A stretch of DNA of 35,494 nt, taken from the IMG/VR virus record IMGVR_UViG_2724679140_000015. One strand, written 5' to 3'. Every line of letters starts with the position of its first letter. Positions within the stretch are counted from its first letter, which is position 1. The stretch comes from a virus. Lineage: Duplodnaviria; Heunggongvirae; Uroviricota; Caudoviricetes. A program made the position numbers and the translations under genes. Shown here piece after piece: positions 22,893 through 27,046 of the stretch. The notes under the pieces were generated by a model. The model did not search any database. It saw nothing but the letters and a program-made list of their open reading frames with translations, and had not been told where the DNA came from.

Positions 22893-23243
22893 TTAAAGCC
22901 CCATCGCAACAGCCAGGCAGACCGCTGCAACAATCAGTGCACGGCGGATTAACGCAGCAGAAAACACCAGGTGAAGGCCGGTCTGTACCGGGAAACGCCC
23001 TTCAGCCATCAGCCTGTCGTCATGTTTCAGGTACTGACCGGGACGGGCTTTGGGGAAGAGCGAACGGTCAAGCCAGTAACCCAGCACTGCTGCCAGCGTG
23101 ATGAGTGCCAGCTTGTAGATCACAACAGGCAGTTGCTGTGGTGAGACCAGAGCGATGGTGCCCAGCAACAGCACTGAGGTCAGCAGCCAGCCGCTGAGGC
23201 GAGGTTTTTTAACAGGGGGAATGAATGTTTTCAGGTTTTTCAT
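22893..23243 (-). CDS. putative holin (small membrane protein)
   Basis: Two to three predicted transmembrane segments; AAGGAG 6 nt upstream of ATG at 23243; immediately upstream of endolysin. Confidence 0.45.
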   Translation of the reverse strand: MKNLKTFIPPVKKPRLSGWLLTSVLLLGTIALVSPQQLPVVIYKLALITLAAVLGYWLDRSLFPKARPGQYLKHDDRLMAEGRFPVQTGLHLVFSAALIRRALIVAAVCLAVAMGL

Positions 23244-23373
23244 GTGTGTCTCCTTATCTGGTGGAGACAGCATCACAAATACAGGGCGCGAAGGATTTTA
23301 AAGCGCGTTAAGAGAGCCGGGGATACGGGATGTGCAGGATAAACGATGAATTATTCACAGAGGAGAATACGAT

Positions 23374-24117
23374 ATGACGCAGACACTGAATCCGGTCATC
23401 ACTGTCACCGTGTCCGGTCCTGTGGGCAGCGGTAAAAGTTACATATTGGCGCGGATAGAGGAAGTGGTGAAACAGGAATTCGGAAACAGCGTCATTGTCG
23501 ACGCCGCAGACGTGGACGGTGAGCGCCGTATGAGTGGGGGTGATCTGAGCACATGGCAGAAACCACGGGCAGGCACACTTATCCGACTGGAGGAATACAC
23601 AGAAAAAACTCCGATGTCATACAGCGAGGGATGCATTCTCCGGACGAATGCACTGCTGGATGTTATATGCCCCACAGGCCAGTACCCATGGACACTGCCC
23701 GATGCACTGCATGCCACTATTGCGGCACTGATGGCAGTTTACGATCAGGAGCTGCTCATGAAGGAGCTACGTAAACTCACTGGTCAGCCAACAGAATGTT
23801 TTTCGGCCCCGAAGTACGGGAAGCAGGAACACATCCCGGTGAACACAATCCCCGTTAACCAGCCTCCCCGGTTCTTCGACGAATACATTCTGACACCGGA
23901 AAATAAAGCTGAGCATGAAGTGATCAAAGAGGCGTTGTTCCGGGAAATCAGGAAGATTGCTGAAATGCAACTGGAGGGCGGGCTGGACAGAGTGATGGCG
24001 AGAGGAGAATGGGAATCGCTGTTTGAAAGAACTTCCCCGGAATTACTTCCCCTCGCACTGGCTATCGGGATTATGCAGACAGCGGATAAACCTCACTTAC
24101 GTTCATTAAACACGTAA
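23374..24117 (+). CDS. small P-loop NTPase/kinase-like protein, function unknown
   Basis: Walker A-like GPVGSGKSY near N-terminus; GAGGAG RBS 8 nt upstream of ATG. Confidence 0.5.
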   Translation: MTQTLNPVITVTVSGPVGSGKSYILARIEEVVKQEFGNSVIVDAADVDGERRMSGGDLSTWQKPRAGTLIRLEEYTEKTPMSYSEGCILRTNALLDVICPTGQYPWTLPDALHATIAALMAVYDQELLMKELRKLTGQPTECFSAPKYGKQEHIPVNTIPVNQPPRFFDEYILTPENKAEHEVIKEALFREIRKIAEMQLEGGLDRVMARGEWESLFERTSPELLPLALAIGIMQTADKPHLRSLNT

Positions 24118-24497
24118 CTCATAATCCGGGATACGCGTTCAGCGATGACTGCATTTTCACCGGTTTTTACTGCATCCAGAAGTGACTCTTTAAATGGTGC
24201 GGGCCGGGGCTGCAGAAGGGTCGGCGTGGCATTGAGCAGACGGAGCGTTTTTTCCGTGAGGACGACATCAGCCGCTCCCACAGCCAGCAACTGAGAGTAA
24301 CGAATATAGCTGTTATCCCGAAGCCATATCAGCGTATCAATAAAATACCGGCACTTTTTCTGGTCGTGATCAACCTGGTCCGGGATATCGAAAAAACCAG
24401 AATAAATCAAAACCTGAGGTGCCGGATGCGTGTTCAGTAATCGGCAGAATATTTTGCCGGTGAGTGCATAAAAATCATCATTTAAGGAGTGCATCAT
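24093..24497 (-). CDS. hypothetical protein, paralog 1 of a duplicated ~130-aa family
   Basis: Shares several conserved blocks with 24963-25343 (e.g. IFxRL, DTxxWLxxxxY, LNATP). Confidence 0.45.
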   Translation of the reverse strand: MMHSLNDDFYALTGKIFCRLLNTHPAPQVLIYSGFFDIPDQVDHDQKKCRYFIDTLIWLRDNSYIRYSQLLAVGAADVVLTEKTLRLLNATPTLLQPRPAPFKESLLDAVKTGENAVIAERVSRIMSYVFNERK

Positions 24498-24711
24498 GAA
24501 TCCCCGATTAACGTTAACAGAACATCAGCGCCGTGCTGAAGCAGTGAACAATGTTCTGGAAGATATTATCCGGTTACATCGCGGAGAACTGAGTGTCTGT
24601 CGTGCCACAGTTCATTTTCAGGAAATACAAAAGCAGTTTGATACTTCTGTTTTTGCAGAAGGTATTACTTATGCCCTGGACCAGATAAGGTCAGAAAATC
24701 GCCCCGGATAA
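24496..24711 (+). CDS. hypothetical 71-aa protein
   Basis: Strong AAGGAG RBS 6 nt upstream of ATG; start overlaps the divergent start of paralog 1. Confidence 0.35.
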   Translation: MNPRLTLTEHQRRAEAVNNVLEDIIRLHRGELSVCRATVHFQEIQKQFDTSVFAEGITYALDQIRSENRPG

Positions 24712-24902
24712 TCCCTAAACCACATTAACAGAAATCACTTCATCCCTGCCGCATCATGAAAGAACGACCAGCCCGGTGCTTCGGACCCACCGGGCTGGCC
24801 ATCGTCCCACAGAAGTGGCTGTGAGCCGACCGAGGTTCAGTCAGTCTCGCGAGACCAGACTAGCCTGCCATATTTTTAATAATTGTAAAATGTTTACAGA
24901 TT

Positions 24903-24956
24903 ATGAAAACGCAGACATTACCCATCGTTCCATGGATTGGTGGCAAACGCTGCCTT
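24903..24956 (+). pseudogene. truncated remnant of a Dam-like methyltransferase N-terminus
   Basis: MKTQTLPIVPWIGGKRCL matches the N-terminus of the intact gene at 25538 (MKEQSLPIVPWIGGKRRL); frame diverges and stops at 25004; upstream ~85 bp also duplicated. Confidence 0.45.
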
Positions 24957-24962
24957 GCGATA

Positions 24963-25343
24963 TTACATAAGACCACGAGACATATATTGCAGACCTATTC
25001 CTAGAGTCTGGCTAACCAGTGATCGCAACGCTTCTTTCCCTTCAATTTTTATAGAGTCAGATATTCTGGCCCCCAACGGTTTTTCCAGACTTCCAGGCGT
25101 AGCGTTTAATACCTCAAGACCTTTAGCCGTTAGCACTGCGTTGTGGATCCCCCCAGAACTACGCGCCCCGATTAAATAGCCACTGTTTTTAAGCCAGTCT
25201 ACGGTATCAAGAAAAAAAGTAAGTTCATTCTGTCTAACGATATCAACTGCCTTTATATCAATTTTGACGGGGAAAGATTCGTAGAGTCTCCCAAATATCT
25301 CACCAACTATTTCATTAAACCGCTCAATATTTTTTGGGGCCAT
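24963..25343 (-). CDS. hypothetical protein, paralog 2 of the duplicated ~130-aa family
   Basis: Likely start at internal ATG (MAPKNIERF...) at 25343; ORF-track start at 25427 probably over-extended. Confidence 0.45.
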   Translation of the reverse strand: MAPKNIERFNEIVGEIFGRLYESFPVKIDIKAVDIVRQNELTFFLDTVDWLKNSGYLIGARSSGGIHNAVLTAKGLEVLNATPGSLEKPLGARISDSIKIEGKEALRSLVSQTLGIGLQYMSRGLM

Positions 25344-25537
25344 GGTATTAGTAACTCCCTTTAATTGTCGCCCATGAAATATGCAAATAACATGAAAAGA
25401 GCGACTCACCTTGTGCAGCGAACACAAGGCGAGTCATCAACTTACAGGTATGAGCTGTGAGTCAACCGAGGCTCTTCCGTTCTCGAGAACAAGGGAAGCC
25501 TATCGCATTTTCATCTAATGAAAAAGGCTTACAGATA

Positions 25538-26302
25538 ATGAAAGAACAATCTTTACCCATCGTCCCCTGGATTGGGGGAAAACGTCGTCTGGCCAAACAC
25601 ATTCTGCCCCAGTTCCCACTCCATACCTGCTATGTGGAGCCATTCTGCGGCGCAGCAGCACTTTATTTTCTCAAGACTCCCAGCAAGATCGAAGTCATTA
25701 ACGATATCAACGGTGAACTGGTAAATCTGTATCGGGTAGTAAAGCATCATCTGGAAGAATTTGTCCGCCAATTCAAATGGGCGCTGGTTAGCCGGCAGAT
25801 CTACAAATGGCAGCAGATCACCCCGGAAGAAACACTGACGGATATCCAGCGTGCGGCACGGTTCTACTACCTCCAGAAGCAGGCGTTTGGGGGCAAGGTG
25901 GCAGAGCACAGCTTCGGCACCTCCACCACCTCCCCGCCACGCTTCAACCTGCTCCGGATTGAAGAAGAACTGTCAGCGGCACACCTGCGGCTTTCCAGAA
26001 CGGTGATAGAACACATGGACTGGCACCAGTGCATTAAGCGTTATGACCGTCCGCACACGCTGTTCTACTGTGATCCGCCCTATCTGGGGACGGAAGGCTA
26101 TGGTGTGGATTTTCCTGAAGAGAACTACACACTACTCGCAGAACTGGCACGGTGCATCAGAGGAAAGATGATTATCTCGGTGAATGACATTCCGCAGATG
26201 CGTCGGGTGTTCACTGAACTGAACATACAGACGGTGAATATCAACTACAGTCTGGCGGGGAAACCCACGCCGCGCCGTGAACTGGTAATCTGCAACTTCT
26301 GA
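25538..26302 (+). CDS. orphan Dam-like N6-adenine DNA methyltransferase
   Basis: N-terminal PWIGGKR and FCGAAA (AdoMet-binding-like) and catalytic DPPY motif; start at ATG 25538 preferred over GTG 25457. Confidence 0.7.
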   Translation: MKEQSLPIVPWIGGKRRLAKHILPQFPLHTCYVEPFCGAAALYFLKTPSKIEVINDINGELVNLYRVVKHHLEEFVRQFKWALVSRQIYKWQQITPEETLTDIQRAARFYYLQKQAFGGKVAEHSFGTSTTSPPRFNLLRIEEELSAAHLRLSRTVIEHMDWHQCIKRYDRPHTLFYCDPPYLGTEGYGVDFPEENYTLLAELARCIRGKMIISVNDIPQMRRVFTELNIQTVNINYSLAGKPTPRRELVICNF

Positions 26303-26308
26303 AACAAA

Positions 26309-26333
26309 ACCGGAAAGCACAATGCTTTCCGGT
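26309..26333 (-). terminator. hairpin (11-bp stem) followed by T-rich tract on the minus strand; likely terminator downstream of the repressor gene
   Basis: CCGGAAAGCA-CAA-TGCTTTCCGG read directly; minus strand continues TTTTGTTTC. Confidence 0.4.
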
Positions 26334-26418: not shown

Positions 26419-26757
26419 TCAGCCTGCGAGTTTGCTTGGTTTGGGTTGAATGAAGACTTTGCCGACCTCAAGAATTGCCCTCCGTTGTTCGGGGCTCATT
26501 TCGTCGAATGCATCCATTAACTCTTTCTTTTCTTGTGACACATAAGGTGCAACAACAGGCTGACTCCGCACCCCAGTAACTACATACAAAATATCTACAC
26601 CGATTTCTGATAGTGCAGATAACTGCACTGCAGTAGGAGAAGTGCGATCTTTTTCCCAATCAATGAAAGTTCTCTTTGCCACACCTATAGCATCAGCCAA
26701 CCCTTGCTGTGTAAGAGATAGACGCTCTCTTTCTTCTTTAATACGTAACCCGATCAT
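26419..26757 (-). CDS. phage repressor, XRE-family helix-turn-helix
   Basis: HTH-like LSLTQQGLADAIGVAKRTFIDWE; divergent from the ner-like gene; start at ATG 26757 preferred because the ORF-track start (26910) overlaps ner by 50 bp. Confidence 0.5.
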   Translation of the reverse strand: MIGLRIKEERERLSLTQQGLADAIGVAKRTFIDWEKDRTSPTAVQLSALSEIGVDILYVVTGVRSQPVVAPYVSQEKKELMDAFDEMSPEQRRAILEVGKVFIQPKPSKLAG

Positions 26758-26781
26758 GTGAGTTTTTCTGCACTCTTTAAG

Positions 26782-26810
26782 TTGACTGGTGAGATAATCT
26801 GCACCATAAT
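26782..26810 (+). promoter_or_regulatory. candidate early promoter (TTGACT-17 bp-CATAAT) with repeated ATAATCT motifs (operator candidates)
   Basis: Sigma70-like hexamers read directly, ~45 bp upstream of the ner-like start. Confidence 0.35.
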
Positions 26811-26857
26811 CTATCACACATAAGGCAAACATCATTGCATCAACAAAGGAGACAACG

Positions 26858-27046
26858 ATGACTGCAGAACAAGTCAAAGCTCTCTTCCGCCAGCGCGGGA
26901 TCACCTTCACCCGCTGGGCAGAAGAAAACGGCTACAACCGCAATGAGGTATACCGCGTTCTCAATGGGCAGACCAAAGCCCGTTACGGTAAATCCCATGA
27001 AATCGCCGTGAAGTTGGGGCTGAAATCAACAGCTCAGGCAGCCTGA
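26858..27046 (+). CDS. ner: Ner-like DNA-binding protein
   Basis: 62-aa ORF with Ner/Nlp-like pattern; AAAGGAG RBS 5 nt upstream; first gene of the rightward early block. Confidence 0.55.
   Translation: MTAEQVKALFRQRGITFTRWAEENGYNRNEVYRVLNGQTKARYGKSHEIAVKLGLKSTAQAA

Follow-up and report, generated by a model that had tools for sequence, protein, structure and literature searches.

Phage morons are known from lambda (bor and lom), from HK97 (gp15) and from the JBD phages of Pseudomonas. Prophage exclusion combined with self-immunity is known from P22, where SieB is paired with Esc, an internal in-frame product, and from BstA, which is paired with the DNA element aba. Phage switches coupled by antisense transcription or interference include PRM/PR of lambda with its leaderless cI, PR/PL of coliphage 186 and sar/ant of P22. 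The locus analyzed here resembles each of these in part. It lies in a BcepMu-like transposable prophage of 35,494 nucleotides, the whole of which is referred to as the window, and contains two genes of the PHROG 2266 family within a variable cargo hotspot extending from the holin to a Dam methylase.

24093..24497, minus strand: paralog 1, a family protein of 134 aa (ORF; phrog_2266 at E=4.2e-43, residues 2-133)
24963..25343, minus strand: paralog 2, a family protein of 126 aa with an ATG start (ORF; phrog_2266 at E=9.6e-36, residues 3-122)

BLASTP aligned the two proteins over 121 residues with 27% identity and 47% positives (46.6 bits, E=2e-12), and the full length of each is matched by one and the same PHROG profile, so the similarity is far beyond chance. 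The sequence-only reading had described two full-length paralogs, and the pairwise statistics confirm them, at the level of sequence, as true diverged homologues; the conserved blocks it listed (F..xG.IF.RL, F.DT..WL...Y and VLT.K.L..LNATP) were all present in the alignment. The two fall in distant clades of the family tree. Paralog 1 sits on a long branch and deviates at the near-invariant family positions N5, I6, Y21 and F24, and its dN/dS within E. coli was about 0.3-1.2, a range derived from very few substitutions and compatible with either relaxed or diversifying selection, so that it may be decaying in that species. In paralog 2, the loop between strand 1 and helix 3 is shortened; a longer, TTG-initiated ORF extends to 25427 and starts inside a hairpin (listed below), and RefSeq annotates the 126-aa form.

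The family had been called unrecognized, and the searches gave it neither a Pfam model nor a named function. PHROG 2266 is annotated as 'unknown function', and neither Pfam, PADLOC v2.0.0 nor NCBI-style names gave a match for paralog 1, paralog 2 or the neighboring ORF71, nor did Pfam give one for the partner family to which ORF71 belongs. A PDB sequence search with two profiles returned nothing significant (best E about 0.1), Rfam gave no family at the gathering threshold and only noise at E of about 1, and literature searches found no publication describing the family. DUF2513 (PF10711), a label that UniRef gives to some homologues, likewise comprises small phage and bacterial proteins of similar size and winged-helix character, and was rejected as a name for the family: neither window protein and none of 57 diverse members matched it, and 2 of 21 members did so weakly (E=0.043). 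No score reached the curated Pfam threshold of DUF2513, so the family is separate at Pfam resolution.

With 1,867 clusters at 50% identity, the family is large, and it is uniform in length at about 130-155 aa. It is restricted to phages, variable in presence among related phages and acidic overall (median pI 4.8), unlike paralogs 1 and 2, which have a pI of about 7.9. In most loci the family gene is antisense within late structural operons; the window paralogs, unlike the Pseudomonas loci, share a strand with the lysis and late genes. One distant member is found in a Mu-like early region downstream of GemA. A further member occurs in a defence island (Avs2/PD-T7-5), a single anecdote.

The AF2 model of the family protein (pLDDT 91) consists of an alpha/beta winged-helix core, with a three-stranded sheet and wing, followed by two C-terminal helices. 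Its top structural matches were winged-helix domains, the best fold neighbors being CymR/IscR (Rrf2), MarR, MntR and AspA, and many of the neighbors are true DNA-binding regulators of the Rrf2, MarR and PadR-like types. Foldseek searches against BFVD and the PDB gave no match at E<=1e-3, and matches to the named PadR, Rrf2 and MarR families were stray and below threshold; the winged-helix fold is assigned here, and membership of any of those families is not. A HEPN assignment, which the earlier reading had already considered unsupported, was rejected. The RSSGGIH motif is limited to paralog 2 and its close kin and is not a conserved column in paralog 1 or the family; moreover, the confident model shows an alpha/beta winged helix in place of the all-alpha four-helix HEPN fold, which makes the assignment wrong.

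The adjacency of the two copies, next to a methyltransferase gene, had been taken to suggest tandem retention for specificity or immunity-like diversification. The following features were mapped around them.

23840..24701: paralog-1 module, 862 bp that are inserted in comparison with the Salmonella-type prophage (L118, by blastn of the window); it encodes the partner B domain, paralog 1 and ORF71
24959..25453: paralog-2 module, 495 bp that are inserted in comparison with the common E. coli prophage (L002 and L003, by blastn)
24751..24958, plus strand: a second, diverged copy of the methyltransferase leader and first methyltransferase codons (24903-24958), antisense into paralog 2
25402..25436, minus strand: terminator-like hairpin upstream of paralog 2, its 15-bp stem preceding a T-run (from a consensus scan whose total matches were not above shuffled controls, and thus no sign of function)
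24770-24805: similar terminator-like hairpin, upstream of ORF71 and paralog 1 (consensus scan)
25538..26302, plus strand: Dam-type N6-adenine DNA methyltransferase (PF02086 at E=3e-27; PADLOC MTase_II at E=1e-113; RefSeq annotation)

The common E. coli prophage has only paralog 1, and a Salmonella relative has only the paralog-2 type in the same slot, which in other related prophages is filled by different cargo. The three-gene paralog-1 module is also found free-standing in Serratia (L124 and L125). Among 5,426 complete E. coli genomes, the paralog-1 segment alone was present in 498 and the two-copy arrangement in five, all of them 100% identical. The leader copy at 24751..24958 is 72% identical to 25444-25584 and 97% identical to the true methyltransferase leader and 5′ end in L002, and can also be aligned with the leaders of L115 and L124. 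These comparisons show that two independent insertions are combined in the window, their cargo modules having been stacked with no local duplication. The insertions separate genes that are neighbors in related phages, their boundaries are mapped and their presence varies, as in morons. In addition, the family was single-copy in 110 of 110 other loci, so homologues are singletons as far as copy number is concerned, the outcome that the sequence-only reading had itself named as refuting; tandem retention as a sign of specificity or immunity-like diversification is not supported. The methyltransferase is a constant gene of the hotspot, and its linkage to the family genes is positional only because the adjoining cargo varies between loci.

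The neighborhood survey did identify a conserved association that the sequence-only reading had missed, and this is with a small opposite-strand partner gene, not with the methyltransferase. In about two-thirds of loci, the family gene abuts, head-to-head, a gene for a helical partner of ~80 aa (PHROG 25421); about a third of loci are without any partner, and the partner therefore cannot be essential. Both genes are under strong purifying selection. Upstream of partner-less family genes there is no other conserved gene, the upstream ORFs being phage structural genes or noise, and the PHROGs for the partner are families of 'unknown function' only. Paralog 2 is without a partner gene, and paralog 1 is flanked by two partner copies, ORF71 on its 5′ side and the C-terminal domain of the P-loop protein on its 3′ side.

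23374..24117, plus strand: P-loop protein of 247 aa (phrog_3787), convergent with paralog 1, the 3′ ends overlapping by 25 nt (24093-24117)
24496..24711, plus strand: ORF71, a diverged partner of 71 aa (partner A), head-to-head with paralog 1 (phrog_4490 at E=5e-51)
24484..24505: head-to-head junction with reciprocal ribosome-binding sites (from sequence)

ORF71 was linked to the partner family through a partner HMM built from 57 non-E. coli sequences only, which it matched at E=1e-3 (1.5e-4 for the L001 allele) in a database of 10,694 ORFs; hhalign gave a probability of 85.6% (E=5.6e-6). A 73-aa intermediate from Serratia matches both ORF71 (E=2.4e-12) and the partner HMM (E=1.9e-4). The same HMM detected a second partner domain, partner B, in the C-terminal ~80 residues of the P-loop protein (about nt 23866-24114) with E=1e-7 to 1e-32, and in Serratia an 89-aa partner B stands alone, with 47% identity to that domain (E=1.8e-13). 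Free-standing P-loop forms of 141 and 158 aa are without the partner domain, and such P-loop genes adjoin unrelated cargo. PADLOC returned only weak P-loop noise for the P-loop protein at 23374-24117, and its predicted structure was unusable (pLDDT 44.5).

At the junction, the partner and family start codons overlap in a CATG, and the Shine-Dalgarno sequence of each gene lies within the first codons of the other. In the window, the start codons of paralog 1 and ORF71 overlap by 2 nt (CATG at 24495-24498), with a putative Shine-Dalgarno sequence for ORF71 (AAGGAG, 24484-24489, plus strand) within codons 3-5 of paralog 1 and one for paralog 1 (GGGGA, 24505-24501, minus strand) within codons 2-4 of ORF71. 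Elsewhere, the reciprocal design was present at 50 of 60 unique partnered junctions, and partnered junctions contain no intergenic DNA. Synonymous sites are constrained as well: TCC was used in 30 of 34 Ser codons at partnered loci versus 5 of 22 at solo loci (raw counts). Because each Shine-Dalgarno sequence is inside the opposite gene's first codons, the two mRNAs must be complementary across both ribosome-binding sites. A self-hairpin of the quasi-palindromic junction, hiding the ribosome-binding site, was considered and rejected, as all junction RNAs folded no better than shuffled sequences (z = -0.2 to +1.6; partnered junctions, +0.3 to +1.6). Promoter and terminator scans gave counts not above shuffled controls.

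Our best guess, possible rather than probable, is an accessory binding protein that is expressed in lysogeny and whose antagonist is coupled to it in antisense. The family protein would be a non-enzymatic moron product that the lysogen makes from the gene's own strand; it may bind protein or nucleic acid and most plausibly excludes other phages or modulates the host or prophage. The partner would antagonize or regulate the family protein and would appear only on transcription of the opposite strand, which in Pseudomonas prophages is the late operon and in the window the presumed P-loop-to-ORF71 transcript. Antisense coupling could then make the family-protein and partner states mutually exclusive. 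Several observations run against this candidate function, namely the lack of a PADLOC match, the partner-less third of loci, the non-acidic window paralogs, the many DNA-binding fold neighbors, the strand of the window genes compared with the Pseudomonas loci, the null promoter scan, the possible decay of paralog 1 and the singularity of the defence-island case.

Given the fold, the family protein might instead be a dimeric winged-helix transcription factor of the PadR/Rrf2/MarR-like type that acts on operators in or near the junction and controls either adjacent phage genes or the partner, the latter then being the real effector. The C-terminal helices are placed like the dimerization helices of the CymR/IscR, MarR, MntR and AspA neighbors, profile matches to AspA and MarR were found, if weak, divergent regulator-target pairs are common, and the pI of the window paralogs is near neutral. 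We still regard this reading as unlikely, while giving it appreciable weight. The family differs from the PadR/Rrf2/MarR regulators (CymR 2y75, AspA 4rs8/5k1y, MarR 3s2w), with a best sequence E of about 0.1; it is acidic, helix 2 of the would-be helix-turn-helix is variable or deleted, and K74 is the only conserved basic residue in helix 3 or the wing. Furthermore, the zero intergenic DNA leaves no room for operators, in a third of loci there is no partner that could be regulated, and matches to DNA-binding families were all below threshold.

The placement of most family genes, antisense in late structural operons, fits neither the location nor the timing of an early anti-defence gene, and it makes improbable a counter-defence role in which an acidic inhibitor or mimic would neutralize a host defence from the accessory region that it shares with the phage Dam methylase. 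The small size, acidity, phage restriction, variable presence and apparently non-enzymatic nature of the family would fit such a role, as would the Mu-like early-region member and the methylase adjoining the family genes in the window, itself a plausible anti-restriction function, but the window paralogs are not acidic and the constant methyltransferase has no specific linkage to its variable cargo. A toxin-antitoxin or abortive-infection pair, in which one protein is toxic and the other neutralizes it, would explain two small, tightly coupled genes under strong purifying selection that are mobile as a unit, as well as the member in a defence island. This appears distinctly improbable, as the genes are divergent or convergent rather than co-directional and co-transcribed like those of type II toxin-antitoxin systems, toxin-like domains and PADLOC or Pfam toxin-antitoxin matches are absent, and either gene occurs alone, as solo family genes or as a partner domain fused to the P-loop protein. 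Least probable, and largely refuted, is the original proposal of a local tandem duplication kept for diversified specificity or immunity with the methyltransferase or P-loop protein. The mapped insertion boundaries, the separate lineages in which each paralog is the sole copy, the distant clades, the rarity of the two-copy genomes, the 0 of 110 other loci with two copies and the P-loop genes lacking the partner domain all oppose it, even though two diverged copies do stand side by side near the methyltransferase and P-loop genes, the P-loop protein does carry a partner-type domain and two stacked alleles could broaden specificity.

A more ambitious form of the accessory-protein reading, which we think unlikely, is that the unit is an undescribed, widespread phage toggle, with a lysogen-only winged-helix exclusion or defence factor and a lytic-only antidote, and that stacked alleles broaden protection. 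If the family were such a factor with a self-antidote, it would constitute a new non-enzymatic prophage system and would help to explain how temperate phages escape harm from their own defences. The tandem-paralog finding as first stated is mostly ordinary, a rare mosaic in which two cargo modules share a prophage hotspot. Its value lies in a large phage-restricted family (about 1,900 clusters at 50% identity) with a confident fold and no Pfam model, and in an unusual conserved architecture of overlapping divergent starts, reciprocal Shine-Dalgarno sequences and measurable synonymous-site constraint. This architecture predicts mutually exclusive expression, which is concrete and cheap to test.

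Compared with the known systems, the family gene is like the phage morons in being small and single, in lying mostly antisense to the flanking late genes and in being present or absent between conserved structural genes, and differs from them in its coupling to a partner ORF by an overlapping start codon and in the absence of membrane or signal features. SieB/Esc and BstA/aba are similar in the proposed logic only, a lysogen factor harmful to lytic development together with the phage's own antidote; there is no homology, and the candidate antidote here is a separate opposite-strand protein. We know of no earlier description of such a head-to-head design of ribosome-binding sites in a conserved gene pair. 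As in the lambda, 186 and P22 switches, the transcription units are opposed and their expression is expected to be mutually exclusive, but here, unlike in those switches, both ribosome-binding sites and both start codons lie in one ~30-nt segment, and both products are proteins.

The window corresponds to the E. coli type of BcepMu-like (Bcepmuvirus-type) transposable prophages, with lysis and structural genes running leftward, ner-like, IclR-HTH, DUF3102 and rve transposase genes running rightward, and both paralogs lying between the holin and a Dam-type methylase (MTase):

22893-23276, minus strand: holin; the SLT, Mu gp27-like small terminase, large terminase and portal genes share its leftward direction
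23374-24117, plus strand: P-loop protein
24093-24497, minus strand: paralog 1, ORF of 134 aa
24496-24711, plus strand: ORF71, phrog_4490
24963-25343, minus strand: paralog 2, ORF of 126 aa counted from ATG
25538-26302, plus strand: Dam-type methylase, PF02086
26419-26910, minus strand: cI-like repressor

BLASTP aligned the paralogs over 121 residues (E = 2e-12, 27% identity, 47% positives) and recovered the same conserved blocks on which the sequence-only reading had aligned them, and phrog_2266 ('unknown function') spans both proteins end to end (E = 4e-43 for paralog 1, 1e-35 for paralog 2), similarity that establishes the two as homologs. An alternative TTG start would extend paralog 2 to 25427; that start lies inside a hairpin, and RefSeq does not carry this form. 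At E ≤ 1e-3, a profile search of 1.84 billion representatives returned 1,867 family clusters, of which 1,099 also passed E ≤ 1e-10; almost without exception the members are single-domain proteins of 130-155 aa. Pfam has no model for the family, PADLOC gave no match to it, and we found no literature on it, its PHROG identifiers or its RefSeq accessions. The DUF2513 label that UniRef gives some members was rejected, its model being reached by neither window protein and by 0 of 57 diverse members, and a HEPN identity was rejected as well. Modelling establishes a fold resembling PadR/Rrf2/MarR regulators, despite which the family fails every sequence-family test.

The main new result of the analysis is the association with a partner gene. 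In about two-thirds of loci a small opposite-strand ORF (PHROG 25421) abuts the family gene head-to-head; its ~80-aa product, for which Pfam has no model, carries the conserved motif 'Q.xG..D..RAR.YW ... LAEAL' and constitutes a real protein family. Codon substitutions demonstrate purifying selection on both genes, with a median dN/dS of 0.14 for the family gene and 0.08 for the partner (61 pairs). Of 60 unique junctions, 50 have overlapping start codons (CATG); in the others the two starts are separated by 0-4 nt. In 39 of 50 junctions a GGAG falls within partner codons 3-5, at 5-18 nt before the family ATG, and CTCC (GGAG on the other strand) occupies family codons 3-4, again in 39 of 50. 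For the Ser ahead of the conserved Asn, 30 of 34 partnered loci use TCC versus 5 of 22 partner-less ones (Fisher p = 1.6e-6, phylogeny ignored), three partner-less loci with TCC falling within partnered clades, and the full CTCC is present in 24/37 versus 3/35 (p = 6e-7, phylogeny likewise ignored). This partner-linked synonymous constraint is direct sequence evidence that the putative Shine-Dalgarno of each gene is embedded in the other gene, so that each mRNA would reach into the other coding region and the two would be complementary over both ribosome-binding sites. Junction RNAs are no more structured than shuffles, consistent with genuine initiation sites; a self-hairpin at the junction is thereby ruled out.

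The same design recurs between paralog 1 and ORF71, where a CATG stands at 24495-24498, an AAGGAG that would serve ORF71 lies within paralog 1 codons 3-5 and a GGGGA that would serve paralog 1 lies within ORF71 codons 2-4. An HMM of 57 non-E. coli partners only reached ORF71 at E = 1e-3 and a close allele at 1.5e-4 (10,694-ORF database), hhalign of ORF71 against the partner gave 85.6% probability, and a 73-aa Serratia gene occupying the equivalent position links them, matching ORF71 at E = 2.4e-12 and the partner HMM at 1.9e-4; by these comparisons ORF71 is a diverged partner. A second partner copy is identified likewise in the C-terminal ~80 residues of the P-loop protein, which match the partner HMM (E = 1e-7 to 1e-32 by model) and are 47% identical to a free-standing 89-aa Serratia gene (E = 1.8e-13); this domain is missing from the free P-loop forms (141 and 158 aa), which makes the E. 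coli protein a fusion. The P-loop gene converges on paralog 1 with an overlap of 25 nt (37 nt in the Serratia equivalent). With partner copies at either end, paralog 1 is thus flanked on both sides by opposite-strand partner genes, and a plus-strand transcript from the P-loop gene to ORF71 would be antisense to all of it. Paralog 2 has no partner, just an 11-codon stub, is free of the CTCC constraint and groups in the tree with mainly partner-less relatives.

The P-loop module itself, compared between the window and proteins P0050-P0059, is tiny (Walker A GPVGSGKS, then LIRLEE). Besides the 141- and 158-aa forms there are 182-aa ones with internal deletions, the most distant homologue has a degenerate Walker A (GAESSGKN), and AF2 gave a poor model (pLDDT 44.5); it is doubtful that the protein is an NTPase. 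Among E. coli alleles of paralog 1 (window, L001, L002, L003, L035), substitutions are mostly nonsynonymous (8/8 and 6/6 in two pairs), with dN/dS of 0.3-1.2 on small counts compared with 0.24-0.35 for the adjoining P-loop gene; selection there may be relaxed or diversifying, the counts being too small to choose.

Comparison with collinear relatives identifies the holin-MTase interval as a cargo hotspot, with the following contents:

Type A, common E. coli (L002, phage PhiKM): P-loop gene, paralog 1, ORF71
Type B, Salmonella (L118): 158-aa P-loop and paralog-2-type gene only
Type C, L115-117: 141-aa P-loop and an unrelated 164-aa coiled-coil/Zn-ribbon gene (phrog_1244)
Type D, Serratia (L124/125): 89-aa gene, paralog-1-type gene and 73-aa gene, without P-loop
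Untyped, Klebsiella phage KP12 clone: DUF2441 gene

Enterobacterial BcepMu-like prophages thus hold at least five alternative contents here (window 23277-25537; L002, L034, L115, L118, L121, L124): a paralog-1 module, a paralog-2 module, both, the phrog_1244 gene or the DUF2441 gene (188 aa); in Serratia L121, unknowns of 327 and 206 aa precede a family gene. The KP12 clone (L034, OM835952.1, 'Klebsiella phage KP12 clone KP12_2') is filed under Vequintavirinae, but the clone, 35 kb long, runs collinear with transposable prophages of the BcepMu-like kind (transposase, Mu gp27-like terminase and others) and is probably co-assembled prophage sequence.

Two insertions set the window apart: 495 bp at 24959-25453 are absent from the common E. 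coli type, and 862 bp at 23840-24701, containing paralog 1, ORF71 and the C-terminal part of the P-loop gene, are absent from the Salmonella type. Between the two lies a shared segment (24702-24958), which duplicates the MTase leader and first codons in diverged form and offers an obvious candidate recombination substrate. A survey of 5,426 complete E. coli genomes located the paralog-2 segment (24959-25440) in five, all 100% identical, the paralog 1 and ORF71 segment in 498 and the wider locus in 634. The paralogs fall in distant clades of the family tree, and a second family copy within 12 kb was found at 0 of 110 other loci (30 from GTDB genomes, 80 from IMG/VR). The two-copy arrangement is therefore a mosaic stacking of modules and not a tandem duplication. 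The sequence-only reading had taken the tandem copies to suggest specificity- or immunity-like diversification, a claim that these results mostly deflate; duplication retained for specificity is largely refuted and now very improbable.

One of the five two-paralog genomes (NZ_CP068394.1) is E. coli M-17, the strain in the probiotic medicine 'BIOFLOR'. The second MTase-leader copy (24751-24958 against 25444-25584, 72%; first MTase codons at 24903-24958) is also present in the Salmonella type, and transcription that it directs along the plus strand would run into paralog 2 in antisense. Three terminator-like hairpins on the minus strand (25402-25436, 24770-24805, 26309-26333), of which one follows the repressor gene and each MTase-leader copy contains one, might shield the paralogs against read-through from the repressor side; in total the scan gave no more hits than shuffled controls. 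Another tightly packed divergent pair is formed by the longest repressor ORF (26419-26910) and the ner-like gene (26858-27046, plus strand), whose 5′ ends overlap by ~50 nt; the repressor forms annotated by RefSeq are shorter.

That the family behaves as phage cargo we count as established. Loci in the genome collection, mostly Pseudomonas prophages, carry the family gene as a lone insert in late operons, between gpW/portal and large terminase or between tape measure and tail tube/sheath, a moron-like placement; a few loci are not obviously prophage. Of 97 unique loci, 46 have the gene on the strand opposite that of both large flanking ORFs, and only seven have all three on one strand. Antisense late-operon insertion is not universal, since in a Mu-like early region a distant member (P0201, L123:1016-2242) lies downstream of a GemA-domain gene and an 89-aa ORF and points the same way. 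A family gene without partner, from an uncultured Pseudomonas MAG (L016:6001-11814), directly adjoins Avs2 (E = 2e-162) and PD-T7-5 (E = 1e-113), homologies that place it in a defence island.

We tentatively favor, at somewhat under an even chance, a model in which the prophage would express the family protein as a non-enzymatic binding protein, the partner, produced on transcription of its own strand, would act as antagonist or regulator of the family protein, and the antisense overlap would enforce mutually exclusive expression. In orientation the partner agrees with the flanking late operon at most Pseudomonas loci, and in the window it agrees with the P-loop transcript. From the moron-like placement and the one defence-island neighbour, we would guess at superinfection exclusion, defence or host/prophage modulation as the output. 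The main rival, an ordinary winged-helix repressor acting on the partner or nearby genes, is in keeping with the fold and yet unlikely. The segment at the helix 2 position varies in length and sequence across the family and is almost deleted in paralog 2, the family is acidic (median pI 4.8, net charge -6) although both window paralogs, atypically, have a pI of ~7.9, and the near-invariant residues are mostly hydrophobic (N5, I6, F9, L20, Y21, F24, P25, W50, L51, L71, L76, L79, P83), K74 being the sole conserved basic residue; these three features make a textbook DNA-binding wHTH less likely. An anti-defence role ranks below the repressor as improbable, and a TA/Abi system slightly lower still.

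What stands out in this very large, uncharacterised phage family is the family-partner junction, a clean oddity that lends itself to testing. P22 SieB/Esc and BstA/aba are self-immunity arrangements, and phages also have antisense or interference switches; the logic proposed here is like that of both, without homology of the family to either. The family is like PadR/Rrf2/MarR regulators in fold only and like morons in genomic placement, and with its partner it represents phage accessory cargo in which the unusual, conserved head-to-head architecture is the new element.
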